From a virus, in the IMG/VR virus record IMGVR_UViG_3300032224_001676, positions 32,001 through 96,000 of that record: DNA of 64,000 bases. One strand, written 5' to 3'. Shown here one piece after another: positions 1 through 57,240 of this stretch. The number at the start of each line of letters is the position of its first letter. Positions within the stretch are counted from its first letter, which is position 1. The position numbers were made by a program, and so were the translations under genes. The notes under the pieces were generated by a model. It searched no databases. It saw only the letters and a program-made list of their open reading frames with translations, and was not told the origin of the DNA.

Positions 1-1229
1 TAGACATTCATGATTTGTTCAGCTGCGTCTTCAGAGTTGCACCTGTCATCCCAAATGTAAGGTGTTGGGATAGAACCTTGAATTGATCTGTTAGTTGGGT
101 ATACTGGAAACGCCCATTCACCATGTTCTTTAATAGTACCATTATGGTTTGAAGGAAAATCAGCGTCAAAATCAATCCATTTTCCTTTTTTACTAAAGCG
201 CATTTGATCTTGCATTCCACCTGTCACATTAGCTATAATTGGATTTCCTACTAATATAGCCTCAGTTAAACTTAATCCCCATCCTTCATTAGATGTTAAT
301 AAGATTTGAGCATCAGTACAATTGTATAACCAATTCATACGATCTGGGTCCATTCTTTGTTCTGAGAAAAATATATTGTATTGTTCTCCTGTTAAGAATA
401 ATTCTCGAACAGCTTCTAAGTCAGTACCATTATCATCCATAACATTAGTATGTAATACAAAAGCACATTTTTTAGCTTGTTCAATAGGTAATTGATCAAT
501 AAAGTATCTGTATGCTAATAATGTATCAGGTATTTGTTTTCTTCTAATGTTTCTAGAGTTAAAGAATAAAACAAAATCAAATTCTTTACCTTTAAATAAT
601 TGTTTTTTAAAATCTAAAAACTCTTTATATTGAGGATAAGATTCATCAATAGGTTTAAAAATATCATGGTTCAAACCATGGGGTACATATTTAAGTATTT
701 TATCACCTACTTTATCATCTAATACTAATTCATTAATGTTTTTAGTTTGTTTAGAAATAGCTAATAATGCATCGCATGATTCATAAAATGCTTTATTATA
801 GTGAGGAGCAGGATAATCATCCCAAATGTTTAGATATACAATTGGTATTTTTCTTCTAATCTCATTTTCAATTTGAAACAACCAAGCAAAATATCTTGGA
901 TCAGTGATCAAGAAAATAGCGTCTGGTTTTTCTAATTTAATAAGAGCACGAATAAGATTAGTATCACCGTATCCATTAGTTGGATATAATACAACTGAGG
1001 CATCTTCTAAGCCTGTGTTTGTATTAGTGTCTTGAGATAAATCTAATCGTTTACCTTGTTCTGGGTGGTTAATGGCTCCACCTATGTTTACCCAATTAAA
1101 ATGTTGAACAGTATTAAGTACCATTTCTCTAGCTACTGTAGCTACTCCTGAATGTACTCTAAGGTCGTCACAAATTAATAAGATTTTTTTCCTCTCATTT
1201 TGAGGCAAGTAAGCAAAACTTGAATTCAT
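1..1229 (-). CDS. Glycosyltransferase, GT-B/GT4-like (3' end runs off the window; absent from the ORF track)
   Basis: ATG at 1229 reads MNSSFAYLPQNERKKILLICDDLRVHSGVATVAREM and stays open to the edge; contains YVPHG, FNSRNIRRKQIPDTLLAY and SNEGWGLSLTEA (GT4 E-x7-E motif). Confidence 0.85.
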   Translation of the reverse strand, partial: MNSSFAYLPQNERKKILLICDDLRVHSGVATVAREMVLNTVQHFNWVNIGGAINHPEQGKRLDLSQDTNTNTGLEDASVVLYPTNGYGDTNLIRALIKLEKPDAIFLITDPRYFAWLFQIENEIRRKIPIVYLNIWDDYPAPHYNKAFYESCDALLAISKQTKNINELVLDDKVGDKILKYVPHGLNHDIFKPIDESYPQYKEFLDFKKQLFKGKEFDFVLFFNSRNIRRKQIPDTLLAYRYFIDQLPIEQAKKCAFVLHTNVMDDNGTDLEAVRELFLTGEQYNIFFSEQRMDPDRMNWLYNCTDAQILLTSNEGWGLSLTEAILVGNPIIANVTGGMQDQMRFSKKGKWIDFDADFPSNHNGTIKEHGEWAFPVYPTNRSIQGSIPTPYIWDDRCNSEDAAEQIMNV

Positions 1230-1244
1230 ATTATAGATTTTATT

Positions 1245-1276
1245 TTAATATAACAATTTATTCTGACTTATCCAAA
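1245..1276 (-). promoter_or_regulatory. Bacteroidota-type -33/-7 promoter
   Basis: Minus strand TTTG-N20-TATATTAA upstream of the glycosyltransferase ATG. Confidence 0.55.
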
Positions 1277-1455
1277 TTTAAATTTAAATGGTTGTGAACT
1301 TTTTTACGAAAGTCTTCATCAGTAAGATATAAATGGATAGTTCGATCTGCTAGTTTTTGAAAACTAAATTTTCTTTTAACGCATTCTATTCTAAATTCTT
1401 CAAATAGATCGCTTTGGATTTTAACACTAGTTAGTGTCATATCTTTTTTACTCAT
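1258..1455 (-). CDS. Small putative DNA-binding protein (ribbon-helix-helix-like)
   Basis: 65 aa, LTSVKI strand followed by two predicted helices; ATATTTAT motif upstream at 1478-1485. Confidence 0.55.
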   Translation of the reverse strand: MSKKDMTLTSVKIQSDLFEEFRIECVKRKFSFQKLADRTIHLYLTDEDFRKKVHNHLNLNLDKSE

Positions 1456-1503
1456 AGCTTTTATTTTTATGTCCTATATAAATATATACAGATTCAAAAA
1501 TAA

Positions 1504-2439
1504 TTACTTTGAGCATAAATCTGCTTTATCGTTAAACGGACAATACTTACAATTATCACTTGGAGTGATAGGATGAGTGGTGTTTTTATATTCTCCTGTT
1601 AATGTAAAACATTCTTCTATAAATTTAGTCATTGAATCAACTGCTTTCTTAGTTTTAATTTTACCACTAGCAGGAGTAAATATTTGGATTCTACTTTGAG
1701 GGAATTCACTCTCTTCCCATATTTTTCTTTTTAATATAAAAAACTCTACTTCAATATTGTCTTCAGGGATACCAAATTGTTTACTATAATAATGTTTATA
1801 GAATATAATTTGGAATTGTTTGTCCTCATCTTTTTTAGCTTTATCATTCCAACCCCGTGTAGATGTTTTAAAATCGTATATTTTTAATATATTTTCATCT
1901 TGATTATACATTACCAAGTCAATATAACCTTTCAATATAATGTTTTTATAACGCTCATCTGGGCGTATAGACAATGGTAGTTCACATCCTACTAAATGCC
2001 AACTTTTCTTACTAAAATGCCCACCTTTTTTCTTTTTAAAGAAATTTAAGATATTCATTCCATCATCAAAAAACTCTCTCATTTCTGTAGGAGCACTAAA
2101 ATGAGTAGATTTATTAGCTTTATATTCTTTTAAGTATGTTTCTCTAAAAGCGTTTTCAAAATACTCCTCTATATCAATACGATCAGCAGCCGCGGCACTT
2201 TCTTCATACATTACTGTTAAATAATTTTGAAGTGTCTCATGTATGGCTGTTCCGAACACAGTATGGATTGTAGGAGTATAAACTTGAAGTCCATCTTTAT
2301 ACATCAACTCCCATTTGTGGGGACATTGTTTCCAAATAGCATATTGGGAATAAGAAATGGATTTTTGATAAGAATAATCTATTTCCAAAGGAGTAAATTG
2401 TCTTATCTCTTTAATTATTTGCGGAACCTTTTTAGTCAA
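1504..2439 (-). CDS. PD-(D/E)xK exonuclease, Cas4/RecB-like
   Basis: SYSQ..CP, FGTAIHETL, GYIDL..IYDFKTS and C-terminal CKYCPF..C (four Cys). Confidence 0.85.
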   Translation of the reverse strand: MTKKVPQIIKEIRQFTPLEIDYSYQKSISYSQYAIWKQCPHKWELMYKDGLQVYTPTIHTVFGTAIHETLQNYLTVMYEESAAAADRIDIEEYFENAFRETYLKEYKANKSTHFSAPTEMREFFDDGMNILNFFKKKKGGHFSKKSWHLVGCELPLSIRPDERYKNIILKGYIDLVMYNQDENILKIYDFKTSTRGWNDKAKKDEDKQFQIIFYKHYYSKQFGIPEDNIEVEFFILKRKIWEESEFPQSRIQIFTPASGKIKTKKAVDSMTKFIEECFTLTGEYKNTTHPITPSDNCKYCPFNDKADLCSK

Positions 2440-2442
2440 AAC

Positions 2443-2697
2443 TTATTTTTTATACTTGTTACGAATAGCTTCTCCTAACTCAGCATTGTTAGGATACTTT
2501 TGAATTATTTTTTGAATCTCAGGAATGATAGACATTTCTTTTTTAACATACTGAGCTGCGTCTAACAATTCTTCATATAAATGATTCATGTAATCATCTT
2601 TATTGTTTTGATCTAAAGTGGTATTGTATTTTTTTATACCACGCTCACTTCTAGATTTAAGATCTTCAATAACTGCTTCTGTAATTTTGTCCTTCAT
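2443..2697 (-). CDS. Small MazG-like all-alpha nucleotide pyrophosphohydrolase-related protein
   Basis: RSERGIKKYNTTL..HLYEELLDAAQY, an EExxD helix typical of all-alpha NTP-PPases. Confidence 0.5.
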   Translation of the reverse strand: MKDKITEAVIEDLKSRSERGIKKYNTTLDQNNKDDYMNHLYEELLDAAQYVKKEMSIIPEIQKIIQKYPNNAELGEAIRNKYKK

Positions 2698-3104
2698 TTT
2701 AATAACTTTTTTTGTTCTTTGTCTTCTACACCTAATTTAGTAAGGACACTCTTTACTCCAGATTCTCTTAATATATCAATGTATTCTTCAGCTTCACCTA
2801 GTGAGCATTCAAAATAGTTAGCAACATGTTTAAGCAATGATTCTTGCTTTTTCTTTTTAGAGGATTTGATGTATTTAAGGAACATATTCTTTTTAGGTAT
2901 CATATATAAATATATATTATATATTTTCTTCTTATCAGAATATGGAAAAGTTTGCACTAAATTTACGAATTCTATATACTCAGGGTTCATACTGAGGAAG
3001 CGATGCGTCATATAAGGATTAAATGTCGCTTGTTCTTCCTCAGTAAATGATTCCCATTTTGATTTATTATAGGTAATTTCCTTTAACCAATCAAATATTG
3101 TCAT
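2694..3104 (-). CDS. Clamp loader small subunit (gp62-like)
   Basis: FNPYMTHRFLS, FLKYIK, VANYFECS..EAEEY pattern; close to the gp44-like gene. Confidence 0.7.
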   Translation of the reverse strand: MTIFDWLKEITYNKSKWESFTEEEQATFNPYMTHRFLSMNPEYIEFVNLVQTFPYSDKKKIYNIYLYMIPKKNMFLKYIKSSKKKKQESLLKHVANYFECSLGEAEEYIDILRESGVKSVLTKLGVEDKEQKKLLK

Positions 3105-3336
3105 ACTCTTCTCTAACTTCTTTAGGTAACAACTCTAACAATACTTTTCCTGTTACCACATCATAGAAACATGGAATAGGCATAATAGCGTCTTCTGTTG
3201 TACCTGCTACAAATTTAGATACTTTACGTAAAATTACTCCTTCAGCAAACACATGATTACCTTCAGGTGAAGTCATAGGAGTTGTACTCTTAATGTCAAC
3301 GTTGACATTTGGGTTTTGGGGTTGTTGTTTATTCAT
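3091..3336 (-). CDS. Hypothetical protein
   Basis: 81 aa ORF packed between the clamp loader genes. Confidence 0.6.
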   Translation of the reverse strand: MNKQQPQNPNVNVDIKSTTPMTSPEGNHVFAEGVILRKVSKFVAGTTEDAIMPIPCFYDVVTGKVLLELLPKEVREEYDNI

Positions 3337-3341
3337 TTTAT

Positions 3342-4274
3342 TTATTGATTAATTATTTTTAAAACTGAGGCTAATAAAGCCATTACATTGATTTCTTTAT
3401 CAATTCTAAAATTAGCATGGTACATATAATTTTCTATTTCAATAACAATCATTGCTTTTGCTAGATCATTATTACCATACTCATCTAAACTATCATATAG
3501 GAATCTATAAACATCTTCAAAATCATCTAAATTACTATCAGCAAGTATTTGTCTAATATTTTTAAAACTAGATTTAGTTGGAGTTTTAAGTTCCTTTAAT
3601 AAAGCATCTTTATAACCACCTGTTAATACTGTTTTGTCTATTTTAAGAAAACTATTTGCTTCTCCATGAATAGTATTTACTTGACAAGTATTAAGTATTT
3701 TTCTAACATCTGGGTAATGTTTGTTAACTACTAAAACTAGATCTTCTAATGTGTAATGAATATCCTCTTTATCTAAAATAGAAGCAATATGTTTTGCTAC
3801 TTCTTTTTTAGATGGAGGTGTAATTTTTAATACTTGGCATCGTGATTGGAGTGGATCAATAACGCGTTCAAGATAATTGCATGTCAGTATAAATCGAGTA
3901 GTGAGAGAATATGTTTCAATAATATTTCGAAGTGAAGCTTGTGCTTGTATAGTTAAGAAATCAGCTTCATCTAAAATAATAATCTTGATAGGTTTAAACG
4001 AAGCACTTGAAGCGAAACCTTGAACTTTATCTCTAATAGTATCAATACCTCTTTCATCTGACGCATTAATATAGAGATAATCGCAGTTAAAATTATTTAC
4101 AATTAATTTAGCTAATGTTGTTTTACCTGTTCCTGGTGTTCCATACAATAGTAAATTTTGTAAATCGTTTTTTTCAATATATTGGGCAACAATAGATTTT
4201 AATTGCTCATTACTAATATAGTCTTCTAATGTTTTAGATCTATATTTTTCTACAAATAAACTATTTTCTTTCAT
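3342..4274 (-). CDS. Clamp loader AAA+ subunit (gp44/RFC-like)
   Basis: VEKYR, GTPGTGKT, INASDERGID, LDEAD and SRC motifs. Confidence 0.95.
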   Translation of the reverse strand: MKENSLFVEKYRSKTLEDYISNEQLKSIVAQYIEKNDLQNLLLYGTPGTGKTTLAKLIVNNFNCDYLYINASDERGIDTIRDKVQGFASSASFKPIKIIILDEADFLTIQAQASLRNIIETYSLTTRFILTCNYLERVIDPLQSRCQVLKITPPSKKEVAKHIASILDKEDIHYTLEDLVLVVNKHYPDVRKILNTCQVNTIHGEANSFLKIDKTVLTGGYKDALLKELKTPTKSSFKNIRQILADSNLDDFEDVYRFLYDSLDEYGNNDLAKAMIVIEIENYMYHANFRIDKEINVMALLASVLKIINQ

Positions 4275-6387: not shown

Positions 6388-6681
6388 TTAATCTTCAATA
6401 ATTGCTAAAATTTGGTTTTCTGGTATTGTATAATATTCTTCTCCTTCAAAATCGATTTTTGAAGGGCCTGCTAGTGGTAAGATAACTTTTTGTCCTACTT
6501 TTAATATTGTAGGCACAAATGTTCCTGTTACTGAATAATATCCTTCGCCAATTGATACGATTGTTCCTTTTAGTACCTTTTCTTTTCCTAGGTCTGGTAC
6601 TACAATAGACCCATACATTGATTCTTCCTCTTCTTGAGGTTTAACGATCACTGCGTTGAACGTTGCTGTTAATTTACTCAT
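6388..6681 (-). CDS. groES: Co-chaperonin GroES
   Basis: 97 aa, GSIVVPD mobile loop, GTIVSIGEG, LKVGQKV, ILAII; directly upstream of groEL. Confidence 0.92.
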   Translation of the reverse strand: MSKLTATFNAVIVKPQEEEESMYGSIVVPDLGKEKVLKGTIVSIGEGYYSVTGTFVPTILKVGQKVILPLAGPSKIDFEGEEYYTIPENQILAIIED

Positions 6682-6983
6682 ATTGTAATTGATAGTTTTT
6701 GATTAAATTCTTCTTGAATATCAGTCCATTCTTTTATATACTCTTGAAGTGAGTTAAAATCTTTTTTCTTATGGACTTTCATTTGAGCTACACTTTTTAG
6801 CGCTGCATCTAGTTTACCGAAGTGACCCCATGATTTAACATATGTTTTATTAGGTGACTCGGATGATGTTACGTTTTCATAAACGGTGTAACAATAATGA
6901 TCTTTACCTATAAAATAAGGTTCTAGAACTTCATCTCTAATTGTACTTGTGCCAGATTGGGCTTCTTGTTTTTCTTGACTCAT
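6678..6983 (-). CDS. Hypothetical protein
   Basis: 101 aa, first gene of the groES/groEL run. Confidence 0.6.
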   Translation of the reverse strand: MSQEKQEAQSGTSTIRDEVLEPYFIGKDHYCYTVYENVTSSESPNKTYVKSWGHFGKLDAALKSVAQMKVHKKKDFNSLQEYIKEWTDIQEEFNQKLSITI

Positions 6984-6997
6984 AACTTGTTTTTATG

Positions 6998-7029
6998 TAA
7001 ATATAATAATCTATTTTATTATATCCAAA
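6998..7029 (-). promoter_or_regulatory. Bacteroidota-type -33/-7 promoter
   Basis: TTTG-N20-TATATTTA. Confidence 0.7.
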
Positions 7030-7061
7030 TTTAAATGTAACTTTATTATAAATATATAATA

Positions 7062-7787
7062 TTATTGTTCCTTAGCAACTACATAATACTTACTTTGTAA
7101 TTCCTTATGATTAAATTCAAGTTTCATTAAACCATTTGAATTAATATATAATTTTCCATTCTCAGCATTTTTATTACTAACTAATATTTCTTTCAATAGA
7201 TCAGAACTATAAGTCAATTCAAATGTATTAGAGTCTATAATATTAGGATTTGAAATAGAATATGTAACTTTATTAGCATACTCAACATCACCACCAAATG
7301 TAAATTCTAAACCATTAAGACCAGGTTTAATAACTACATTTTCACTATTAGGTAAAGCATTTTTAGCTTTAATAAGAGCAGTCACTACTTCTTCATCTAA
7401 AATAGCATCAATATTATACTCTTCAGGTCCGTTGTATTCGCCTGGTTTAGCGATTGTAAGTAAATCTGCTAAAGCATAATTTAAATTAAATTGTTGGTCA
7501 GCTATTAATAGTTTAGATATTACTTTACCTTCTTTAGCATAATCTAACATTAGATCACCACTTGTAATTGATAATAATTTATCTAATTGAGTAGTGTTAT
7601 TAATGCCTATTTCAGATTCAGGCAACGGAAACCCGTTATATACCACCTTTCCTATCATTTCACGCGTGGGCGCCATAAAATCAATAGTAAGTGTTTTATT
7701 ATTGTTTATACGCCATTTAACGTTTTCTATTAGTCCTTTTAAATGGTATTTTTCAATAACTGATTGGAGTTGAAATTTTGATATCAT
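7062..7787 (-). CDS. Sliding clamp (gp45/PCNA-like)
   Basis: 241 aa with two-domain beta-rich pattern, C-terminal INSNGLMKLEF..SKYYV; replisome context. Confidence 0.7.
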   Translation of the reverse strand: MISKFQLQSVIEKYHLKGLIENVKWRINNNKTLTIDFMAPTREMIGKVVYNGFPLPESEIGINNTTQLDKLLSITSGDLMLDYAKEGKVISKLLIADQQFNLNYALADLLTIAKPGEYNGPEEYNIDAILDEEVVTALIKAKNALPNSENVVIKPGLNGLEFTFGGDVEYANKVTYSISNPNIIDSNTFELTYSSDLLKEILVSNKNAENGKLYINSNGLMKLEFNHKELQSKYYVVAKEQ

Positions 7788-7792
7788 AACTA

Positions 7793-7824
7793 TGAATTTA
7801 ATAAAACTTTTATTTTAGGCCAAA
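7793..7824 (-). promoter_or_regulatory. Bacteroidota-type -33/-7 promoter
   Basis: TTTG-N20-TAAATTCA directly before the clamp ATG. Confidence 0.6.
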
Positions 7825-7842
7825 TTTAATGTTTATTTTAGG

Positions 7843-8364
7843 TTAATAACTTTTAACCATATTAATAGGTATTTTTTTCATATTAGCTTTATCTAATATT
7901 TCTTGATAAAGATGCTTATTGTCCTTCCAATCCTCTGTTTTATCATTGATGTCTATTCTTAAAATATAATCTGTTGATAAGTATCCTGGCGTATCAGAGT
8001 ATATTCTTTCTTCAAATAGGTTATGCCCTTTAGATTTAGTATATCTATCGCCTTTTATTCCTTTTAAATTCCATATATTATCTGGGTTTACTGGTGCTAT
8101 TTTGTATTTTTGAGATATTTTATTACCATCTAATACTATTCGGCTGGCTCTTCTAGTGAAATTATAAATATCATTCCCTGAAAAATCACTACTTCTTGTG
8201 GTTGATATTGAGTATTCTTTTAAGTGATCATTTATATTATCTTTTTGGAATTGTAAACCATTATCTAGTATGTTAGACATATGTCTTAAAGGAGCAAAAT
8301 GATATAAATTACCTATTTGTTTGCTTTCAGTAATTTCTTTTAATAGATCTGTTAGTTTAATCAT
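7843..8364 (-). CDS. Putative ADP-ribosyltransferase-fold protein with MIKLTDLLKE leader
   Basis: LYHF, ISTTRS and LFEERI in ART-like order; start moved to 8364 because ATATTTAT occupies 8369-8376. Confidence 0.45.
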   Translation of the reverse strand: MIKLTDLLKEITESKQIGNLYHFAPLRHMSNILDNGLQFQKDNINDHLKEYSISTTRSSDFSGNDIYNFTRRASRIVLDGNKISQKYKIAPVNPDNIWNLKGIKGDRYTKSKGHNLFEERIYSDTPGYLSTDYILRIDINDKTEDWKDNKHLYQEILDKANMKKIPINMVKSY

Positions 8365-8378
8365 AAACATAAATATTA

Positions 8379-9269
8379 TCAGAAATTAAAGAACTTAGTT
8401 ACATTAGCGTTTAATGGTGGAAAATCCCATTTTAAATCTTTATAGAGTTCCTTTAATTTGTTTAGTAGTAGTGATTCAAAAATCTCATCTACATCAATAT
8501 ATGTTTTAACAAACTTTTCTATTTCGTCTGGTACTTTAGCGTTTGGTAATCCTATTGTTTCTAACTTATACATGTTTGGTTTTAAGTTAATAATGAAGAT
8601 TTTATCACCTTCTACTATTGATTCATATTGTTTATCTAAACGTTTGAATTTTAATAGATCATTATAACGAACTGCTGCTTTAGTATTACTAGGTGCTTTT
8701 AATTTAAATGAACTAAACATTTCACCTGCTCGAGCTGGGATTTTATATGATGAAATTTGTTTTACTCCTGTTGGTTTACCTAATTCTTTAGGATCTAATG
8801 TCTTAACTAATTTATAGAAATCAATAATAGTTTTATCTATTTCTGTTTTGGTTTTACCAAACAAGATATCTTTAATTAGTTGTTCGCCAAATCCTTTAAA
8901 TCGTTTATTCATATTGGACTTCATTAACTCAAGTCCTTTCATATCTAACTCATCAACAGCAACACCTTCCTTATTAGTAATATACATTGCGTATCTTCTC
9001 TTACCTGTAACTAAAATACCTTTAGCGATTACTTCTTGTTTTAATTGGAAATAATGTTTTTTAGGATTAATGTTAAATGATTCTTTAACAATAGTATTTA
9101 AATTATTATTTGACTCAGTTTGGATCTGGTCTGTTATTTTTAAAATAATTTCATTTTTATTAGTATCATTGATTTCAATACCCTGGGATTGCATGTGTTC
9201 TAGAATATTTCCTAGACATATATATAAACTATCTGTGTCTGAGATTATTATGTTTTCTTTATTTCCCAT
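8379..9269 (-). CDS. polB: DNA polymerase B, C-terminal part (motif C palm and thumb)
   Basis: SDTDS at residues 10-14, GKRRYA, KGLE. Confidence 0.92.
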   Translation of the reverse strand: MGNKENIIISDTDSLYICLGNILEHMQSQGIEINDTNKNEIILKITDQIQTESNNNLNTIVKESFNINPKKHYFQLKQEVIAKGILVTGKRRYAMYITNKEGVAVDELDMKGLELMKSNMNKRFKGFGEQLIKDILFGKTKTEIDKTIIDFYKLVKTLDPKELGKPTGVKQISSYKIPARAGEMFSSFKLKAPSNTKAAVRYNDLLKFKRLDKQYESIVEGDKIFIINLKPNMYKLETIGLPNAKVPDEIEKFVKTYIDVDEIFESLLLNKLKELYKDLKWDFPPLNANVTKFFNF

Positions 9270-9897
9270 AGCTCCATTTATAACCGTTTGTTTGTGAAAA
9301 TATTCCTCTACATACTTTAGATATGGTGGATGAATTACTATTTGTTTTAGCAGCTGCTTCTAATGTGTTAGGATATTTTGCTATAAAATTTCCTTGCAAA
9401 TCATATTGTATTACAATTTTTGCTTTTTTAGATGGTTTTCCTTTATTTGCTTGACTTATCTTTTTACCAAACCCCTTAGGTTTAGGGACACCTAATCTAA
9501 CTTCTCTCATCATATCTCCAAATCCTTTAGGTTTAGGTCTTCCTTTAAGAGCATCACTTTTTCGTTTTCTTGTTTCTTTTGATTGTTTTTTACCTAACAT
9601 TGGTTTTTTATCTTTTCTCCAGTTCTTATATTTTGCTATAGATTCTTTAGTATGAAATGATGGACCTCCTCCCCCGGTATTGCAATTTTCTAAATTAAAT
9701 CCCCAACTTTTAAATAAATGAATATACATTGTTTCAATTGTTTTTTTATCTTCTTCTAAACATTCATCTATTTTAATCATTTCAACTTCATTTCCTTTTT
9801 TACGTCTATGATCATTTAAACGATTTTTTAAATGTTTAGTATATCCGATATAAAACGGAACATCATCTCCTCTATGTAAATAATATATTTTAATCAT
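9259..9897 (-). mobile_element. Free-standing GIY-YIG homing endonuclease with NUMOD3/NUMOD1-like DNA-binding modules
   Basis: KIY-x9-FYIG-T..RLNDH, LENCNTGG, KKQSKETRKRKS, and C-terminal QYDLQGNFI..ISKVCRG..GYKWSY. Confidence 0.88.
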
Positions 9898-9918
9898 AAT
9901 ATCTATTTATTATAAATA

Positions 9919-11676
9919 TTACGAGTGTGGGGCAAGGTTAAACTTTTTTATTAATTCTTCTTTATTCATTTGTAAATATTTATTATTAATTTGATCATTT
10001 ACAAACTCAATTGTCTTTTTGGTTAAAGATTGACCACTGTTAGTAATAGCAGCGCTACAAATTAAATGCCCGTCTGTGTATCTCCATCCGTTTTTAGCAA
10101 ATGTACCATACATAGCGTTTTGTAAGATCTTAAAGGCGTGTTGGAACAAATCATATAATTTATAGTTGACCCAGTCTTCAGATTTACCAGCTGTTTTCTT
10201 TAAACCTCTATAATGTTCTCGTTTTCCAAACCAACCTTCTAAAATCTTAGCAACTACACTTTGTTCATCAGTTCTAAACATAGCACCTGAAGCTGATAAT
10301 GTAAAGTCATTTTCTTCAATCATTTGAATCAATTTATTAATTGATATTTGAGCTGATTGGAGTGTGTAGTTCTTTTTATTTAGTTTTTCAACTGTTACTA
10401 TTTCATTAGGGTCTCGTTCTTTAAGTTTTTCTAAACTATGATTTTGTTCATAAGTAGGATTATGAGTAACAATTCTACCTACTAATGTTTCAATTCCTAA
10501 ATTAAGTGATTTAATAATGGAAGGATATAGTGATGTGAAGTCTAAATCAATTACATCAAAATACAGTCCTGGTATTGGTTCTAATAAATAACCACCAGCG
10601 TAAGTTGAATTAACTGCTTTTCGTGATGGGTTATGAGTTGTTGGTTTATTAGGTGAAATAATACCTTCACGTTTAAGATGCTTTAATATAGCACCTTCAT
10701 TCATTACAGTATTATAATAAATTGATTCATAAGGTATATTACAAATATGAGATATCATAATTGTTAATTCAATAAACTTAAGTTTTTCTTCTAGTTTTTC
10801 TAGAATCTCAACGTCTCGTAAGTTGTAATCAATAAATTTATTTAAATCATCTCTAAATAATGTATTTAAATTACCTTCATATTCAATTTTACCTAAACCA
10901 ACATACTTAGTTCCAATGTCTCCTAATTTATATGATGGTTCTTCTTTCATAATGTACTTTTTATGAAGTAACATATAATCTAGATGATTAACCCCACCTA
11001 TTTTAATTTGATTTTCACCATTAAAATCACGTGCCTCAACTTTACCTATTGGAGATAAACGTTCTACCTCGTCTATACCAACAATTTGTAACATTCTGTA
11101 GTATAAGTATGGTAAGTCAAAGTAAGCTGAGTTATAACCAACTAATATAGTAGGATCTAATTCTTCGTATTTAGATAAAAATTTACCTATTAATTCTCGT
11201 TCTGAACCACAAGGTATAATAATTTTATCATCTTGGTTTGTTTTTGGGATTTGCTTTGATTTATCAACTATAAAACATATTTTTTGTTTAGTTGTTATAT
11301 CTATTAAAGCAATAGAAGTAAGGGGCATAGGAGCAGATTTAACATACTCAGGTGTTAATGCACCTCCCATCTCAATTTCAATATCTATATAAACAATATT
11401 ATGCCAAGATGGTACTACATCTTCTTCTTTGTAATATAACTCTCGTAAAGCATATAATGATTTATCAATATCTTTTTCTAATAAATCACGATCATCTTTA
11501 TTGAATTTTTTAGTTGGTATAGCCCACCCACCAGTTAGAACAGGGCGAGCATTTTCTTGCCATTCAGGAACACGTTTCCAAAATGTAGGTTGGAGTTGAA
11601 AATCCATCCAACCTTGTTTATCATCTCGTAAATGATAAGTATAATTTTTATGGTCGTAGTAAATAGCTTGATACAT
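9919..11676 (-). CDS. polB: DNA polymerase B, N-terminal part (3'-5' exonuclease, motifs A and B)
   Basis: DIE, GYNSAYFDLPY, YNLRDV, DFTSLYPS, KILQNAMYG; stops before motif C. Confidence 0.95.
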   Translation of the reverse strand: MYQAIYYDHKNYTYHLRDDKQGWMDFQLQPTFWKRVPEWQENARPVLTGGWAIPTKKFNKDDRDLLEKDIDKSLYALRELYYKEEDVVPSWHNIVYIDIEIEMGGALTPEYVKSAPMPLTSIALIDITTKQKICFIVDKSKQIPKTNQDDKIIIPCGSERELIGKFLSKYEELDPTILVGYNSAYFDLPYLYYRMLQIVGIDEVERLSPIGKVEARDFNGENQIKIGGVNHLDYMLLHKKYIMKEEPSYKLGDIGTKYVGLGKIEYEGNLNTLFRDDLNKFIDYNLRDVEILEKLEEKLKFIELTIMISHICNIPYESIYYNTVMNEGAILKHLKREGIISPNKPTTHNPSRKAVNSTYAGGYLLEPIPGLYFDVIDLDFTSLYPSIIKSLNLGIETLVGRIVTHNPTYEQNHSLEKLKERDPNEIVTVEKLNKKNYTLQSAQISINKLIQMIEENDFTLSASGAMFRTDEQSVVAKILEGWFGKREHYRGLKKTAGKSEDWVNYKLYDLFQHAFKILQNAMYGTFAKNGWRYTDGHLICSAAITNSGQSLTKKTIEFVNDQINNKYLQMNKEELIKKFNLAPHS

Positions 11677-11690
11677 ATGCTGTAAAGATA

Positions 11691-11717
11691 ATAAAAAAGG
11701 CTTGGTTTCCCAAGCCT
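11691..11717 (-). terminator. Intrinsic terminator overlapping the polB promoter
   Basis: AGGCTTGG-GAAA-CCAAGCCT followed by a T-run; CTTG-N20-TATCTTTA spans 11683-11714. Confidence 0.8.
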
Positions 11718-11742
11718 AATTTAAAAACATATCACTTATATA

Positions 11743-13647
11743 TTAAGCAAATGAAGATGATTTCCAAGTTGAACCATTCCAAGCGTATAATCTAACTGTT
11801 CCTGCGTTGTTATAAAATACTAATTCTCCATCTGTTCCAGTCCATGTAGGAGCGGCTCCGTATTTTTTTAATATTATTGAACCAGACATAGTAACTTTAA
11901 ATCCATCGTCTCTTGCTCCTCCCGCTCCAGATCCTATACCTACAATAAATGGATTAGTGATATCACTATGATTATTATATTGTCCTACTACAGTCTGATA
12001 TGATCCTGATGCTATTGTATTGTTTCCAGCTACAAATGAGTAGCTTCCTGAAGCATCTGTGCCGAGTCCTATAGCTAAAGAATAATCGCCTTCGGCTTGT
12101 GTGGCGCTTCCCATAGTATGAGAATAGTTACCTATTGAGGTTGTTAATTTACCTTCAGCATGAGAACCATAACCTATAGCTTTAGATCCTGATCCTTCAG
12201 CATGTGAATTAACTCCTACAGATGTTGTGTTTATTCCTTCAGTATGAGAATAATTACCTACTGCTGTTGTTTTTTGTCCCTCAGCGTGTGATGCTATTCC
12301 TATTGTAACTGAGCCTGACCCTTCAGTGTGTGATGCTAGACCTGATGCTGTTGTTCCAAATCCTTCAGTATGAGAATAATCATTTGCAGCTATTGATAAA
12401 TAACCTTCAGAGTGTGATCTATTTCCTTTAGATGTAGTGTAATAACCTTCAGCATGAGAGCTAGCACCAATAGAAGTTGAGTATTCTCCTTCAGCATGAG
12501 ATTCTTGACCAACAGCTACTGTGAATGCGCCTTCAGAATGTGAAGCATCTCCTACAGTTGTAGTTATGTATCCTTCAGCATGTGAACCAAAGTTACCTAA
12601 TGCTTTTGAACTATAGCCCTCAGCATGTGAATATGTACCTACAGAAGTTGAGGAATTTCCTTCAGCATGAGATGCTACTCCTACAGTAACTGTTGAGTAT
12701 CCTTCGGCGTGTGATGAAGAACCTGAAGCGATTGTTAAATTACCTTCGGCGTGTGAATAAGAACCTGAGGTAATAGTTGTATTTCCTTCAGCATGTGATG
12801 CAACTCCAGTAGTTGTAGTTATGTATCCTTCAGTATGTGAGGCCAATCCAATTGATGTAGTTTGAGTTCCTTCAGCGTGTGAGTAAAGTCCTTTTGTAAC
12901 AGTGTAAAAACCTTCAGCATGTGATGCTTCTGCCCCAAGTGATGTTATAGAACCTGATCCTTCGGCGTGTGATGATATTCCAACTGTTGTGGTTTTTTCT
13001 CCCTCAGCATGTGAATAATATAATATAGTTGTTGTTTGGTACCCCTCAGCATGAGTAGCAGTACTATTAGCTAAAGTACCATTTCCTTCAGCATGGCTCG
13101 CAAATGCTCCAAAATTAACTATAGTATTTAATCCTTCCGCATGAGAGTAATCACCAGCAGCATAAGAATTATATCCTTCAGCATGTGAAGATGTTCCATA
13201 AGAAACTGTTAAATATCCTTCAGCATGAGAATATCGCCCAGTAGCCGTGCTGCTTAATCCTTCAGTATGAGAACCTGTTCCAACAGCTGTAGTAGTGTAT
13301 CCTTCAGCGTGTGAGGCACTTCCTATGGTTATAGTTGATTTACCTTCGGTGTGTGAGTAAATACCTACAGTAGTAGTAAGATACCCTTCAGCATGAGATG
13401 ATGATCCTATAGTTGTAGAACAGTTACCTTCAGCGTGTGAGTAAAGACCTATTGCTAAATTACAACTTGCTCCATTTGTTAATGAACCAGTTATATATTG
13501 AGACCCACTAAAATGATTAGATCCTGTAATTGCAAATGATCCTGTAGCTGAGTTAGGGCAAAAACTAGATGTAATAAATGTAAAATTATTATCTAATTGT
13601 TGGTAGGTTAAAGCTGAACCTTGGGCTAATCTAAGTATTAAAGACAT
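11743..13647 (-). CDS. SHAEG-repeat fibre/adhesin (YadA-head-like beta-roll)
   Basis: About 30 SH[AT]EG repeats with ~14 aa period; N-terminal LRLAQGSALTYQQLDNNF segment. Confidence 0.75.
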   Translation of the reverse strand: MSLILRLAQGSALTYQQLDNNFTFITSSFCPNSATGSFAITGSNHFSGSQYITGSLTNGASCNLAIGLYSHAEGNCSTTIGSSSHAEGYLTTTVGIYSHTEGKSTITIGSASHAEGYTTTAVGTGSHTEGLSSTATGRYSHAEGYLTVSYGTSSHAEGYNSYAAGDYSHAEGLNTIVNFGAFASHAEGNGTLANSTATHAEGYQTTTILYYSHAEGEKTTTVGISSHAEGSGSITSLGAEASHAEGFYTVTKGLYSHAEGTQTTSIGLASHTEGYITTTTGVASHAEGNTTITSGSYSHAEGNLTIASGSSSHAEGYSTVTVGVASHAEGNSSTSVGTYSHAEGYSSKALGNFGSHAEGYITTTVGDASHSEGAFTVAVGQESHAEGEYSTSIGASSHAEGYYTTSKGNRSHSEGYLSIAANDYSHTEGFGTTASGLASHTEGSGSVTIGIASHAEGQKTTAVGNYSHTEGINTTSVGVNSHAEGSGSKAIGYGSHAEGKLTTSIGNYSHTMGSATQAEGDYSLAIGLGTDASGSYSFVAGNNTIASGSYQTVVGQYNNHSDITNPFIVGIGSGAGGARDDGFKVTMSGSIILKKYGAAPTWTGTDGELVFYNNAGTVRLYAWNGSTWKSSSFA

Positions 13648-13670
13648 ATATGTGTTTTGTTATAAATATT

Positions 13671-15706: not shown

Positions 15707-18154
15707 TTAAACTAATCTAATTTGTATAAAACTTCCGTTTCTGTATAATCCACCTATTGGGATACCTGCTGCTGCTGCGGAGGCGTCATTAGCATAACTA
15801 GCTAATACTAATCCTGGTAGTATTATTGTTCCGTTTCCTGTTGATATAGATCCTGAGATTGCTAATGACCCTGTTACTTGTACTTGTGAACCAGAAGCGT
15901 ATAATAAATTACTTCTACTAATATCACTAGTACCATTACCTACAATAAATGAAAAATCATTAGAATTTTCTAAGTTATAAGCACCTTGAACATGTGACCA
16001 AGCGCCTCCTGCTATAGTATAATATCCTTCAGTATGTGATCTACCTCCTTTTGCTGTTGTGTAGTAACCTTCAGCATGAGAACCTACACCAACACTAATT
16101 GTACTTTCGCCTTCAGCGTGTGAGTTTTGGCCTACTGCAGTTGTGAGTACTCCTTCAACGTGGGTTAAATCTCCTATGGCTTTTGAACCATATCCTTCAG
16201 CATGTGAATAATTACCTATTGAAACTGTAGTGTTACCTTCAGCGTGTGAAGCTAATCCTTGTGTAGTAGTAGTATATCCTTCAGCGTGAGAATAATATCC
16301 ATTTGTTGTTGTATGATCACCTTCAGCATGCGATCCATCAAAATTAGCTATAGTGTAAGCACCTTCAGCGTGTGCATTTGTTCCTATTGCTGTTGTAAGT
16401 GTTCCTTCAGTATGAGTATAATAACCTAAAGCTTTAGTAGAGTTTCCTTCAGCATGTGAGTTTATACCTACCGCTGTTGATACAAAACCTTCAGTGTGTG
16501 ATCCATCTCCTATTGCGGTTGTTTGAGTACCTTCAGCATGAGAAAAAATACCTATTGAAACAGATCCTGAACCTTCAGCGTGTGAGAAAGCACCTGCTGA
16601 TACTGTGAGTAATCCTTCGGCGTGTCCGTAACCTCCTTTAGCTGTAGTGGATATACCTTCAGTGTGGTCTCCAGGTCCGTTTGCTTTAGTTTGAAAACCT
16701 TCAGCATGTGATTGAGAACCTGATGCTATTGTTTGGTATCCTTCAGCGTGTGAGTATGAGCTTGACGCTATTGTTTGGTATCCTTCCGCGTGAGAATAAG
16801 CGCCTGATGCTAATGTTTGGAGTCCTTCAGAGTGGGAATATATACCTACTGAGGTAGTGTTATTACCTTCAGCGTGAGATAAATCTCCTTTTGCTGTTGA
16901 TTGACCTCCTTCAGCATGAGACCAATCACCTATCGCTTTATTAGAACCTCCTTCAGCATGAGACCAATTACCCACTGCTGAAGTAGAAGCACCTTCAGCA
17001 TGTGAGAAGTTACCTATTGTTGTTATATTCTCTCCTTGAGCTAAACTACCTGTAAGTTGCATTGATCCAGTTGCTTTAATAACATTTTGAATACCTAATG
17101 ATACAGCTATATTTCCATTTGGGTAGTAATATTTACGATTATCCCAATCAATAGCACTTGTTCCATTTATGTCATTTAAGAATCTAGCATCCCAATCTAC
17201 GCTTGTACGCCCAGATGCATCAATTAAATAATTACCTCCCCAATCTACTACCACTGTGTGGCCATCTGTAGCGTATAAGTATCTATTATTAGGATCTACA
17301 GATATAGCATTATTATCTGTATCGTATAAACCATACCCAGATTTAAATTTTAATGATCCAGAAATGGTAGTATTACCTTTTAAATTTACTGTTACTCCGG
17401 ATCCTGAGATTATAAATGATCCTGTAACTGCTCCGTTTCCATATTGGCGTATATAACGAGCATCACCAGTTGCTGTGTCGAATGGGGCTACTGTTAACCA
17501 TTGTCCTACTGAACCTGATTTATATATGTAAGCGTCACCATTATTAGCTGGGTTAGCATCTCCTGATACTACCCATAATAATCCATTAGTTAATGAGCTT
17601 GTAACAGCTCCTGATGAAGATACTGCTAATGAAGCGGATGTACCTGTAAGTACTGCTGTTAATGATACAGATACGTTACCAGCTGTTGGAAAAATTCCAT
17701 TAACTGATGTCACAAATTGTGACGTGTTAGCAGATGTTAATATATTTTGGCCGTTTATAGTACCAGCATTACCAATAGCTATGTTATTAGTAATTGTAGC
17801 GTTATTAGCTACAAGATTTGATAAGTCTATATAAGATGCTGTTAAAGCGTTTATCGCTAAATCTACATAAGATGCGGTTAACGCGTATGAGGCAGTAGAA
17901 GATAGAACTGCTAAATCTACATAAGACGCGGTTAAAGCATAAGATGCTGTAGAAGATAAATTAGCTAAATCTACATAAGACGCTGTTATTGCATTTGTAG
18001 CGGTACCATTTAATGATCCTGTGATTGAAGCATTAGCTAAAAAATCATTAAAGGAGGCTGTACTTAAGAAACTAGATGTAATATATGTGAAATTACCATC
18101 TAATTCAGCATATGTTAATTCATATCCTTTTTCTAAACGGAGAGTAAGTGCCAT
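15707..18154 (-). CDS. SHAEG-repeat fibre/adhesin
   Basis: LRLEKGYELTYAELDGNF N-terminus, TASY repeats, VDW repeats, then >20 SHAEG repeats. Confidence 0.75.
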   Translation of the reverse strand: MALTLRLEKGYELTYAELDGNFTYITSSFLSTASFNDFLANASITGSLNGTATNAITASYVDLANLSSTASYALTASYVDLAVLSSTASYALTASYVDLAINALTASYIDLSNLVANNATITNNIAIGNAGTINGQNILTSANTSQFVTSVNGIFPTAGNVSVSLTAVLTGTSASLAVSSSGAVTSSLTNGLLWVVSGDANPANNGDAYIYKSGSVGQWLTVAPFDTATGDARYIRQYGNGAVTGSFIISGSGVTVNLKGNTTISGSLKFKSGYGLYDTDNNAISVDPNNRYLYATDGHTVVVDWGGNYLIDASGRTSVDWDARFLNDINGTSAIDWDNRKYYYPNGNIAVSLGIQNVIKATGSMQLTGSLAQGENITTIGNFSHAEGASTSAVGNWSHAEGGSNKAIGDWSHAEGGQSTAKGDLSHAEGNNTTSVGIYSHSEGLQTLASGAYSHAEGYQTIASSSYSHAEGYQTIASGSQSHAEGFQTKANGPGDHTEGISTTAKGGYGHAEGLLTVSAGAFSHAEGSGSVSIGIFSHAEGTQTTAIGDGSHTEGFVSTAVGINSHAEGNSTKALGYYTHTEGTLTTAIGTNAHAEGAYTIANFDGSHAEGDHTTTNGYYSHAEGYTTTTQGLASHAEGNTTVSIGNYSHAEGYGSKAIGDLTHVEGVLTTAVGQNSHAEGESTISVGVGSHAEGYYTTAKGGRSHTEGYYTIAGGAWSHVQGAYNLENSNDFSFIVGNGTSDISRSNLLYASGSQVQVTGSLAISGSISTGNGTIILPGLVLASYANDASAAAAGIPIGGLYRNGSFIQIRLV

Positions 18155-44408: not shown

Positions 44409-44445
44409 AAAGTAGATTTGTTATAAATATTTAATTCTTAAATTT

Positions 44446-50680: not shown

Positions 50681-50702
50681 GTTATATGTTTAGTATAAAT
50701 AT

Positions 50703-55456: not shown

Positions 55457-56770
55457 TTATTGAGTTATCCAGTATTCTACTCTTGTTCCTTTAACCCATT
55501 CAGCATAAATTATATTTAGTGTATTTGGAACATAAACACCATTACTTACTACTACCCATCCTGCTGGGGTTGATGGAGCTACTGAGTTGTTATGGTATAT
55601 TTTTTGTACTATTCCGGTTTTAGCTCCTGTTAAATTATCAGTTATATTCCCTGTCCCTGGTACATCCCATTCATTATAAACTTGGTTGGAAGTAAATGAT
55701 ACTACTGTTCCTGTTGTAGCAGAAGGAGTAGTTAATACTTGATTATTATTCCAATTAAATGAAGAACCTGTAGTATTAATTGATCCGGTTACAGTTATAT
55801 TTTGGTTTAGTATATTTAAATAGGATGCTGTTAAGGCAAATGATGAACTTAATGCTTGGTTAGTGTAGGAGGATGTAGTTGTTAATAAATCTTGATTTGG
55901 ATTATATCTTAAACCTCCATCTACTTGAATACTGCCTGGTCCTGATGTATCAACAAATAAAACGTTGTGTTGTAAATTTTGTGTTGATATACTAGTAGAT
56001 ACTGAAAGTGCCACAGATGATGTTAAGGCAAATGATGAACTTACTGCTTGTGATATATAAGAAGATGTTTGGGCTATAGTCACATAAGAAGCTGTTTGAG
56101 CAGTTACTATATAAGAAGCCGTTTGCGCGTTTTGTATAAATGAGGCTGTGGATGAGAATGAAGAACTTATTGCTTGTAATATATAAGAAGCTGTTTGAGC
56201 AGTTTGTACATAGGATGCTGTTTGCGCTATTGTAACATAAGACGCGGTCATTGCTTCTGATGCTTTTATAGCCCAACTTGATGTGCCTTGTAATGATCCT
56301 GTTATTGAAGGAGCATTCAAACTTCCAGTAATAATATAACCGTTCATATTTAAATTACCAGCAGCTGTTAAAGTACGAGATCCTGTTTCTATTCTCCATG
56401 CTGAAGTTAGCACATTACTGTCCCAACTAGTTACTAAATATAATCCAGCATTATCTACCCAAACATAGTTTTGACCATTATTAGATCCCAATTTTGACCG
56501 CCCGTCAGGGCCAGCTGTCATGTCTATACTAGGACCAGTTGTAGTTATTGATGATCCACTATTAAAATATATATTACCCGATATGTTTAAAGAATTAGAT
56601 ATTAATAAACTACTTGTTGTAGACCAAATATCTCCATTTATGTTAGTAAATATAGAATCACCTTGAGGTCCTGGTTGTCCTTGAGGTCCTGGGGTAGATA
56701 CTTGTATAACACGTGTTCCATCTTGTTGAACAGTGATAGTATTGGTGGATGTATTTACGTTTACTGACAT
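55457..56770 (-). CDS. Fibre-like protein with short collagen and TASY repeats
   Basis: PGPQGQPGPQG, multiple AQTASY units. Confidence 0.6.
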   Translation of the reverse strand: MSVNVNTSTNTITVQQDGTRVIQVSTPGPQGQPGPQGDSIFTNINGDIWSTTSSLLISNSLNISGNIYFNSGSSITTTGPSIDMTAGPDGRSKLGSNNGQNYVWVDNAGLYLVTSWDSNVLTSAWRIETGSRTLTAAGNLNMNGYIITGSLNAPSITGSLQGTSSWAIKASEAMTASYVTIAQTASYVQTAQTASYILQAISSSFSSTASFIQNAQTASYIVTAQTASYVTIAQTSSYISQAVSSSFALTSSVALSVSTSISTQNLQHNVLFVDTSGPGSIQVDGGLRYNPNQDLLTTTSSYTNQALSSSFALTASYLNILNQNITVTGSINTTGSSFNWNNNQVLTTPSATTGTVVSFTSNQVYNEWDVPGTGNITDNLTGAKTGIVQKIYHNNSVAPSTPAGWVVVSNGVYVPNTLNIIYAEWVKGTRVEYWITQ

Positions 56771-57171
56771 TATAGTACTGTTACTTGATCACTTAAACTA
56801 ACTTGGCCTTCTAATAATCTTACTGTATATGGACAATTACTACCAGAATATATTTCTAAATCATAATAAGCTGTACTAAAATTAAGCATTGAGGATGTAC
56901 ATGATGAAATATATATTCCAATAGAACCACTAGAGGGTGGTGTTGTACCATTACTCCCACTAAAATTTAAACCAGTGCCATCAGCATTTAAAGAACTAGA
57001 TAATGTAAGATATACTGTACGATTAGGAACAGAAGCATAGTTAGATGCTATTTGCATTTTACCTGAGTAATTAGCTAAATCAACAGGTGTACCTGATGAG
57101 TCTAGATATTGTACTTCAAAATTAGTAGTTGCTCCTTGTTCTATTACAAAAGAATATCTTCCTGCGGCCAT
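56770..57171 (-). CDS. BppU-like baseplate/fibre attachment protein
   Basis: IEQGAT, PVDL..Y..KMQI, YYDLEI, RLLEGQV. Confidence 0.65.
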   Translation of the reverse strand: MAAGRYSFVIEQGATTNFEVQYLDSSGTPVDLANYSGKMQIASNYASVPNRTVYLTLSSSLNADGTGLNFSGSNGTTPPSSGSIGIYISSCTSSMLNFSTAYYDLEIYSGSNCPYTVRLLEGQVSLSDQVTVL

Positions 57172-57240
57172 GTTAATGTTTAACTATAAATATTAGAAAG
57201 TTTTAAATTAATTTAAAAATACTAAATAAACTAATTATTT

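Follow-up and report, generated by a model that had tools for sequence, protein, structure and literature searches.

In a 64,000-nt stretch of viral DNA, hereafter the window (positions 32,001–96,000 of the IMG/VR record IMGVR_UViG_3300032224_001676, which is 127.8 kb long and ~78% complete), we found a family-B DNA polymerase (PolB) gene of the T4 gp43 type that is divided into two cistrons, with a free-standing GIY-YIG homing-endonuclease gene lying between them. We consider it likely that this polymerase acts as two non-covalently joined chains, that the split is older than the GIY-YIG gene and moves laterally, and that the gap between the cistrons is a landing site for nucleases and other cargo. 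Its reading as a two-chain polymerase made without splicing is well supported by the sequence comparisons below. The window belongs to an uncultured T4-like phage: no near-identical DNA was found in the cultured-phage collection, and the closest cultured-phage relatives of its polymerase, those of T4-like cyanophages, reach 31% protein identity at best.

On the minus strand, the locus consists of a 585-aa N-terminal polymerase part, 21 nt, a 212-aa endonuclease gene and a 296-aa C-terminal polymerase part (Table 1). The large-chain gene ends with TAA at 9921–9919, and the endonuclease gene overlaps the small-chain gene by 11 nt (9269–9259), so that the gap and overlap given in an initial annotation of this DNA both hold. 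The N-part matches DNA_pol_B (4.1e-26) and DNA_pol_B_exo1 (3.6e-16) in Pfam, each above its cut-off, while the sole match of the C-part is a weak one to divDNApol (22.5 bits vs a cut-off of 25.7). Residues 1–566 of the N-part are 97% identical to an unsplit 860-aa PolB (P0001, from locus L003; relatives are denoted by L numbers), the C-part is 87% identical to the C-terminal third of that protein, and N-part residues 1–566 plus C-part residues 2–296 cover all of it. Aligned through P0001, motif A (D379-FTSLYPS) and motif B (K516-ILQNAMYG) of the N-part correspond to D411 and K560 of RB69 gp43, and motif C (D11-T-D13-S) of the C-part corresponds to D621/D623; D11, T12, D13 and S14 are invariant in the allele alignment. 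The small chain thus aligned matches RB69 residues ~615–891, and the cut falls in the loop before the motif C strand, at about RB69 606–614. Taking an exonuclease domain together with motifs A (DxxSLYPS), B (KxxxNSxYG) and C (DTDS) as the mark of a T4/RB69 gp43-type PolB, we find the full set shared out over two open reading frames (ORFs), and the gene is a bicistronic gp43, in which two cistrons with their own starts and stops jointly make up the whole protein. The annotation had rightly placed the break between motifs B and C and the small-chain ATG nine residues ahead of SDTDS; it had also rightly given the large chain its own stop, which lies 61 residues past the motif-B glycine and not the ~50 residues after KILQNAMYG that it had stated. 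The three-gene arrangement is not an assembly artefact, because two independent IMG/VR contigs, L007 and L071, show the same order of N-part, endonuclease and C-part.

A divided gene could still give one protein if the halves were rejoined through a group I intron, by trans-splicing of a split intein, or by translational bypass or read-through. Such routes have precedents, in that a group I intron is annotated in 43B of Aeromonas phage 25 (NC_008208), a split intein has been reported in PolB1 of the T4-like phage Aes123, and in the empty-split relatives described below the stop lies in frame with the downstream ATG. At the window locus, however, an Rfam scan of 7500–12500 on both strands with E-values up to 1 returned a chance-level FasX sRNA match and neither a group I intron nor any ribozyme core (P3–P9). 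The room outside ORFs at the junction is just 21 nt, the rest of the gap being a complete protein-coding ORF. Neither polymerase half has a Hint or intein match in Pfam, the junction lacks the splice-junction residues of an intein or split intein, and the peptides absent from unsplit alleles measure 18 residues at the large-chain end and 9 residues at the small-chain start. The tail codons are under protein-level constraint (see below), which argues that the tail is translated and not spliced out, and we know of no case of a translational bypass of 660 nt. We therefore regard rejoined halves as very unlikely. With no intron core and no intein termini, as had been claimed, the composite active site would have to form from two chains, and the earlier proposal to this effect follows from the two-cistron arrangement.

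If the two chains make a functional enzyme, both should be constrained in alleles that carry the split. Across 45 pairs from 10 split alleles, the ratio of nonsynonymous to synonymous polymorphism (pN/pS) was 0.18 for the N core, 0.21 for the tail, 0.24 for the C head and 0.20 for the C core, which points to purifying selection on both halves. The whole 127.8-kb record has one PolB match, the split gene itself, and no PolA match. Because both halves and the tail appear constrained and this is the sole PolB of the record, the two-chain enzyme is very probably a working replicase. The contrary view, that we are looking at a dead polymerase gene of a defective or dependent phage or at a misassembly, can appeal to the capacity of homing-endonuclease insertions to inactivate genes, to a premature stop in one relative (L024) and to a broken N-part in another (L126). 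It is, however, hard to square with pN/pS values of ~0.2 in both halves, with the intactness of every catalytic motif, with 24 independent split contigs (among them six of an empty-split clade, all split and forming one clade on the tree), with the shared gene order in L007 and L071, and with the lack of any other polymerase match in the record. We judge it the least probable of the alternatives considered here.

Split alleles recur among relatives of the window. Among the best 120 cluster representatives from a large protein collection, 29 are of the split type (581–594 aa, with the tail) and 91 have at least 800 aa. A first IMG/VR scan yielded 75 loci (57 unsplit, 10 split and 8 cut by contig ends). 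A second, with a tail-region query, gave 77 further locus identifiers (51 unsplit, 23 split, 2 cut and one with a broken N-part, L126); nine of these 23 split loci come from contigs already found, which leaves 14 new split contigs, and with the window the collection amounts to 25 (24 + 1). As the search words included split-specific peptides, these locus counts are not population frequencies. The gap holds very different contents across the 25 contigs (Table 1): the GIY-YIG family of the window, an EndoVII-like ORF, a 308-aa endonuclease, other ORFs, or nothing beyond six nucleotides between stop and start. L126, with its broken N-part, also carries the GIY-YIG family. Nineteen of the 25 contigs are without that family and yet have the same junction and tail motif.

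Some of the cargo deserves separate mention. The 4.2-kb gap of L056 (6749–10950) contains a phrog_1084 ORF, a family also present in the window at 56770–57171, and a 1037-aa collagen-repeat, tail-fibre-like gene; by its sequence, this is a structural module placed inside a replicase gene. Small cargo ORFs that otherwise look unrelated (L017, L018, L043, L075, L082, L083, L128) begin alike, with peptides such as ..SEEFKRMQKLAG.., MDNFDLKKYL.. or MKKS.LRQIIKEEI.., and may thus belong to one family of small exchangeable genes.

The junction and the polymerase backbones that carry it appear to have separate histories. Main-clade and empty-split alleles share a small-chain head signature (..MKS[QK]GIEIND.NKNE..) with a three-residue insertion that unsplit alleles do not have, and AGT encodes the second Ser of SDTDS in every one of the 11 split alleles as against three of 40 distinct unsplit sequences, the other unsplit ones using TCN. 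On a tree of the N core, accommodating the 10 split rows takes 10 changes of state, of which well-supported branches force at least nine; shuffled labels fare no worse. A single clade of split rows is rejected by an approximately unbiased (AU) test (difference in log-likelihood 1116.6, p = 0.0003). The C-core tree likewise requires 10 changes. The C-head tree (55 columns) requires a single one, as low a number as none of 500 shuffles reached. A wider alignment of 61 rows (18 split), from which 14 rows with incomplete N-parts were left out, gave a tree that needs 11 changes. In it the empty-split contigs form a monophyletic group, a far split clade has unsplit relatives next to it, and most split rows of the main clade have unsplit rows as their immediate neighbours, none of them being grouped exclusively with another split row. 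The junction haplotype is thus scattered over polymerase backbones and is probably moving laterally.

A direct comparison of near-identical alleles agrees with such movement. In 60-nt bins, the window and the unsplit L003 share 56–60 of 60 positions upstream, down to 10057, and 46/60 at 10056–9997; across 9996–9157 there is no usable similarity (0–24/60 per bin, mostly gaps), 825 nt of the window standing in for 110 nt of L003 in the dissimilar stretch. Downstream the match resumes with 40/60 and 48/60 at 9156–9037, 54–59/60 to 8437 and 47/58 in the final bin. Against the split L007, identity is instead ~75–88% per bin (mostly 82–85%) at the far 5′ end and 93–98% around the endonuclease gene. 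Outside a foreign cassette of about 1 kb, which comprises the tail-coding end, the gap, the endonuclease gene and the head-coding start, the backbone is ~97% identical to the unsplit allele. We read this bin profile as the footprint of a cassette copied in along with its flanks.

Did the endonuclease make the split? The initial annotation took it to be the agent, and one may suppose that an intact polymerase gene was disrupted by the very insertion of the GIY-YIG gene, in which the tail and head peptides would also have arisen, as described for mobE in nrdA of Aeromonas phage Aeh1. The gene almost exactly fills the gap, the cassette is the sole difference between the window and the ~97% identical unsplit allele, and the same endonuclease family occupies the same site in a distant clade. 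In Aeh1, moreover, the essential tails came with the mobE insertion (PMC3045599). Against such an origin, the 19 split contigs that lack the gene still have the tail motif, and the main and empty-split clades have the head signature as well; six contigs show an empty 9-nt junction, with nothing but TAA, six nucleotides and ATG; the same gap also hosts two further nuclease families; and the one add-on seen only with the GIY-YIG gene in the near clade is a terminal APHS. An origin of the split in this insertion is therefore unlikely, and the annotation's attribution of the break to the homing endonuclease is not supported in that form, although its two-cistron, splicing-free polymerase is. Since tail, head and junction all exist without it, the GIY-YIG gene is probably a later occupant of an older, laterally moving split and not its maker. 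Copies of the endonuclease are 63–65% identical between clades whose C-parts are 47–50% identical, from which it follows that the gene moved between genes that were already split.

The C-terminal tail of the large chain is the most distinctive peptide of split alleles. Its first 12 codons (568–579) have a pN/pS of 0.21, against 0.18 for the neighbouring core. A common end of the ..SKEELIKKFNL type runs through the split alleles (consensus ..[LM]-x-K/D-[DE]-E-L-x-x-x-F-x-L), as ..INNEYLQLSKEELIKKFNL in the main clade, ..MEMSKDELMEYFELD..KK in the empty-split clade and ..EYLEMDEEELKKVFDL in the far clade. The terminal APHS is confined to three near-clade GIY-YIG alleles (window, L007 and L071) and, in the protein collection, to three of the 29 split-type representatives. 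For the large chain modelled by itself, AlphaFold2 gave a mean pLDDT (predicted local distance difference test) of 50.6, with ~55–65 in the tail, a model too poor to place the tail; in it, the tail forms a short helix (572–578) after a long one (546–567), at low confidence. Of the helical extra tail described in the annotation, the extra and conserved character is thus confirmed, and the helix is a feature of a low-confidence model. The tail probably helps the two chains to dock.

The endonuclease ORF matches NUMOD1 above cut-off in Pfam (27.7 vs 22.8 bits), so that a C-terminal NUMOD module is present, and falls just under the cut-offs for GIY-YIG (22.2 vs 22.6 bits) and NUMOD3 (19.5 vs 20.4 bits); in PHROGs it matches phrog_314, 'homing endonuclease' (1.3e-16), and in a search of solved structures its IYYL..FYIGYT..NRL segment aligns weakly to the UvrC GIY-YIG domain (E ~0.6). 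Glu E55 and GFNLxN, candidate GIY-YIG catalytic residues, are kept across seven copies, and conservation between clades is strong over the C-terminal two thirds. The pN/pS among copies ranges from 0.09 to 0.54. The gene is intact in the window and L071, is interrupted in L007 by a stop in place of the conserved Glu, and is absent from the ~97% identical L003. It is free-standing, with no intron, presence or absence among close relatives, and flank identity that peaks around the gene. To judge from these copies, intact to broken, the endonuclease goes through the usual homing life cycle. Distant relatives (~30% identity) of it sit directly upstream of the polymerase gene in L011–L013, L015, L018 and L073, and another distant GIY-YIG copy occurs elsewhere in the record, outside the window (G000:C1:2185-2586).

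Taken together, these data suggest how the system may work. A large chain with the exonuclease and motifs A and B would assemble non-covalently with a small chain carrying motif C, the thumb and the C-terminal end, so that the catalytic aspartate motifs would be supplied by different chains, with the conserved extra peptide of the large chain helping them dock. The split junction would recombine into otherwise unsplit polymerase genes, and its intercistronic gap would serve at least three nuclease families and other cargo as a landing site. The window occupant, an intact GIY-YIG/NUMOD endonuclease, most likely spread by cutting alleles without the gene and was copied in with flanking DNA; a foreign tract of ~1 kb in a ~97% identical backbone would follow from such copying.

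Comparable systems are known. Split (bicistronic) gp43 genes of T4-related phages were reportedly described by Petrov et al. in 2006 and 2010, the nrdA-a/mobE/nrdA-b 'genes in pieces' of Aeromonas phage Aeh1 by Friedrich in 2007 and Crona et al. in 2011, the split PolB of Methanothermobacter thermautotrophicus by Kelman et al. in 1999, and the PeSL cassettes of T4-like phages by Arbiol in 2010 and Comeau in 2014. Published accounts name split gp43 genes in the T4-related phages 133, 44RR, 31, 25 and 65, with gaps of 2 bp to 3 kb (PMC3061061, PMC2677866), and place all of these cuts in the fingertip, between the finger helices and before motif B (PMC3061061). In phage 25, a free-standing GIY-YIG seg-like gene lies between 43A and 43B (PMC2988022, PMC2677866, PMC3061061); its gp43 chains co-purify and are active, and whether the endonuclease made or invaded the split is left undecided there (PMC2988022). 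The window resembles these phages in having a T4-type PolB in two cistrons, with a GIY-YIG gene in the gap as in phage 25, and in an intercistronic distance that among its relatives is likewise variable, where the known cases range from a few bases to kilobases. Unlike them, it is cut between motifs B and C, nine residues ahead of the latter, and thus not in the fingertip; gp43A of phage 25 (498 aa; NC_008208) stops short of motif B, its alignment with P0001 reaching no further than about residue 400. The window also differs from phage 25 in having no intron in the small-chain gene, and from all of these cases in its lineage (at most 31% identity to cultured phages) and in a junction that varies among the near-identical backbones of a population. 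Split gp43 as such is therefore not new; the site, the lineage and the population behaviour are what differ.

The annotation had named nrdA of Aeh1 as its precedent, and that likeness stands, although phage 25, with its split gp43 and GIY-YIG gene, is the closer one. In both Aeh1 and the window, an essential enzyme is cut in its catalytic core next to a free-standing endonuclease gene, with neither RNA nor protein splicing. The enzyme and the endonuclease family differ, that of mobE in Aeh1 being of HNH type, and a tail of the window type is found also without any endonuclease. For Aeh1, new terminal tails on both chains are reported to be needed for assembly (PMC3045599), a function thus demonstrated there, whereas the docking role of the window tail is putative. 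The PolB of M. thermautotrophicus is an active enzyme whose two chains come from separate genes; the break is in the palm, at ~83 residues C-terminal of Pfu 467/468 (PMC3061061). It differs in being archaeal, with genes 85 kb apart and no mobile element. By Pfu numbering, we take that cut to lie just after motif C, as against before motif C in the window. The 'fractured genes' of Dassa et al. (2009), in which a split intein is combined with a free-standing endonuclease in environmental phage-like DNA (PMC2677866), share a replication enzyme gene in two pieces with an endonuclease gene between; the window, in contrast, has neither intein parts nor splice-junction residues. PeSL promoter/terminator cassettes mediate gene swapping in T4-like phages (PMC4122927). 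As there, a short repeated motif, putatively regulatory, precedes swappable genes at the window locus and the cargo differs among close relatives, but the swapping site lies inside an essential gene and a stem-loop or terminator part is seen only in places.

In the literature searched, no account turned up of T4-like phages whose polymerase is divided between motifs B and C. One further instance came from an unannotated 484-kb uncultured phage (LR756508.1), whose T4-type PolB occupies two ORFs and is cut between the same motifs (Table 1). Its 1017-aa part contains a Hint-like insert inside motif B and its 621-aa part an intein-like insert at motif C, with weak, sub-cut-off Hint and Intein_splicing matches; the gap of ~3 kb holds two paralogous ORFs of 270 and 251 aa, a dCMP-deaminase-like ORF and a 266-aa ORF. 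Because the cut lies between the same motifs, the B/C site may represent a weak point of T4-type PolB that is recurrent or very old. We tentatively go one step further, to a proposal that we regard as possible though doubtful: the junction would be a portable 'gene-splitting' module that turns intact polymerases of lineages ~55–65% identical to one another into two-subunit enzymes, the docking tail making this harmless, and that offers a safe harbour contested by at least three endonuclease families and by cargo such as the tail-fibre-like gene of L056, at a site that is a recurrent or very old weak point.

The gap also carries signals that may bear on expression. The annotation had reported a late motif there, and a promoter-like motif is indeed present, although it is not T4's TATAAATA but one of the phage's own, ATATTTATA (ATATTTAYA). 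The T4 late consensus TATAAATA was rejected as the gap signal: it lies on the opposite (plus) strand, where it is the reverse complement of the ATATTTATA motif, and is not enriched (24 matches in the window vs 19.5 expected). The ATATTTATA motif has 24 matches in the window where 9.9 are expected, a number reached by none of 100 shuffles, and 21 of them are on the minus strand; nine of these 21 stand 12–14 nt before the ATG of an ORF of at least 40 aa, the endonuclease gene included, and a spacer of exactly 13 nt is frequent. T-runs precede many copies, and further sites lie at, for example, 13661–13669, 44422–44430, 50694–50702 and 57185–57193 (minus strand). The motif precedes the tail sheath gene (phrog_23, 3.5e-76) with a 23-nt spacer, a head-tail-adaptor-like protein gene and four genes for YadA-head-repeat proteins. 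Among relatives, 16 of 18 gaps checked have copies at the large-chain stop or before cargo ORFs, and L043 and L075 have copies before the small-chain gene as well. From this placement, ATATTTAYA is probably a late-type or structural promoter of the phage group, or a promoter/terminator junction. A scan for sigma-70-type sites was uninformative, with 20 sites and thus fewer than the 28.2 in shuffles.

The four YadA-head-like genes are large paralogs with SHAEG repeats (11743–13647, 15707–18154, 48491–50680 and 59642–61315, minus strand; phrog_25468, E down to 6e-91), each preceded by ATATTTATA, and their products are probably fibres.

An AU-rich hairpin spans the gap (Table 1). Its 101-nt surroundings fold with a minimum free energy of −13.9 kcal/mol (z = −2.07; six of 200 shuffles fold as well), whereas the region ahead of the small-chain ATG shows no structure (z = +0.81). 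Both L007 and L071 retain the hairpin, apart from two one-sided changes and one broken pair. For T4-family endonuclease genes, control is described by a hairpin combined with a late promoter whose transcripts are without the inhibitory arm (PMC2988022). Similar control at the window locus is a speculative analogy, under which read-through polymerase transcripts would mask the endonuclease start codon and transcripts begun at the motif would expose it. Eight inspected gene starts in the window (e.g. 11676, 13647, 7787 and 6983) have AU-rich leaders, and none has an upstream Shine-Dalgarno sequence except for a GGAG 2 nt before the small-chain ATG; we gave this GGAG no weight as a Shine-Dalgarno sequence, the inspected genes having no other. 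The pattern suggests that the host initiates translation without Shine-Dalgarno sequences.

Table 1 Features of the split polymerase locus, contents of the gap in 25 split contigs, and the split PolB of LR756508.1
Feature	Location	Strand	Basis or remarks
Large polymerase chain (43A-like), 585 aa: N-terminal and 3′–5′ exonuclease domains, palm motif A, fingers with motif B, post-fingers helix	9919..11676	−	ORF, Pfam, identity to unsplit P0001/L003
Split-specific C-terminal tail, residues 568–585, LQMNKEELIKKFNLAPHS	9922..9975	−	Split vs unsplit alignments; no unsplit counterpart
AU-rich 13-bp hairpin	9894..9924	−	5′ arm holds large-chain stop, 3′ arm endonuclease AUG
Promoter-like motif ATATTTATA	9911..9919	−	Abuts large-chain stop, in 5′ arm of hairpin, 13 nt before endonuclease ATG
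Intercistronic gap, 21 nt	9918–9898	−	
Free-standing GIY-YIG/NUMOD3/NUMOD1 homing-endonuclease gene, 212 aa	9259..9897	−	Pfam, phrog_314
Small polymerase chain (43B-like), 296 aa: motif C strand, remaining palm, thumb, C-terminal ..KFFNF end	8379..9269	−	ORF, identity to L003, RB69 gp43 alignment
Putative foreign 'split cassette', ~1 kb	9040..10050 (approximate)	−	60-nt bin identity vs L003 and L007
Gap occupant: GIY-YIG family of the window	6/25 contigs: window, L007, L071, L128, L129, L131		
Gap occupant: EndoVII-like ORF, 255–290 aa	5/25 contigs: L040, L065, L083, L134, L155		L040 by PHROGs ('endonuclease VII', phrog_1035, 1.5e-13); the other four by eye
Gap occupant: 308-aa endonuclease	1/25 contigs: L028		phrog_559 (9e-64), phrog_9084
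Gap occupant: other ORFs, no nuclease match	7/25 contigs: L017, L018, L043, L075, L082, L089, L056		Placing of L082 and L089 provisional
Gap empty (TAA + ATTTAT + ATG)	6/25 contigs: L092, L097–L101		
PolB halves of LR756508.1, 1017 aa + 621 aa	L157 (259000–267800), ORFs 364–3417 + 6423–8288		

Next to the polymerase, a 175-aa ORF (7843–8370, minus strand) without a Pfam or PHROG match lies between the small-chain gene and the following gene. It is missing from the otherwise ~95% identical L003, where its flanks are ~18 nt apart, and so marks a second small indel beside the polymerase.

Several points weigh against the reading we prefer, in which an older, mobile split gives a two-chain polymerase and the GIY-YIG gene arrived later. 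The case for chain association and activity is made at sequence level, the AlphaFold model of the large chain being poor, and the record is ~78% complete, so that a second polymerase may exist elsewhere. Support for the C-head clade is only 58% on its 55 columns, and L028 forms a long branch in that tree, with a divergent tail and head, which makes a second origin possible. The trees cannot separate gain from loss, and an ancestral endonuclease could have made the first split and then been lost or replaced. The promoter role and class of ATATTTATA are read from its placement only; the hairpin is weak and AU-rich, with no compensatory change among the three sequences compared. The peptide-guided search behind the locus counts and the provisional placing of L082 and L089 among the other-ORF gaps (Table 1) count on the same side.

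If the preferred reading is correct, a replicative polymerase tolerates a cut between its nucleotide-binding motif and its catalytic-aspartate motif, and the split would behave in nature as a mobile allele and not as a single accident. The relatives form a natural series, from the intact gene through the split with an empty gap to the split with each of three nucleases and the split with ordinary cargo. This series lends itself to studying how essential enzymes come together again once broken into pieces, and whether selfish nucleases cause such breaks or simply take advantage of them, the same question that Aeromonas phage 25 has left. For annotation, such loci would be best described as one two-subunit polymerase instead of truncated genes. 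The conserved tail peptide is a candidate docking element, which may perhaps be reusable in engineered split polymerases.

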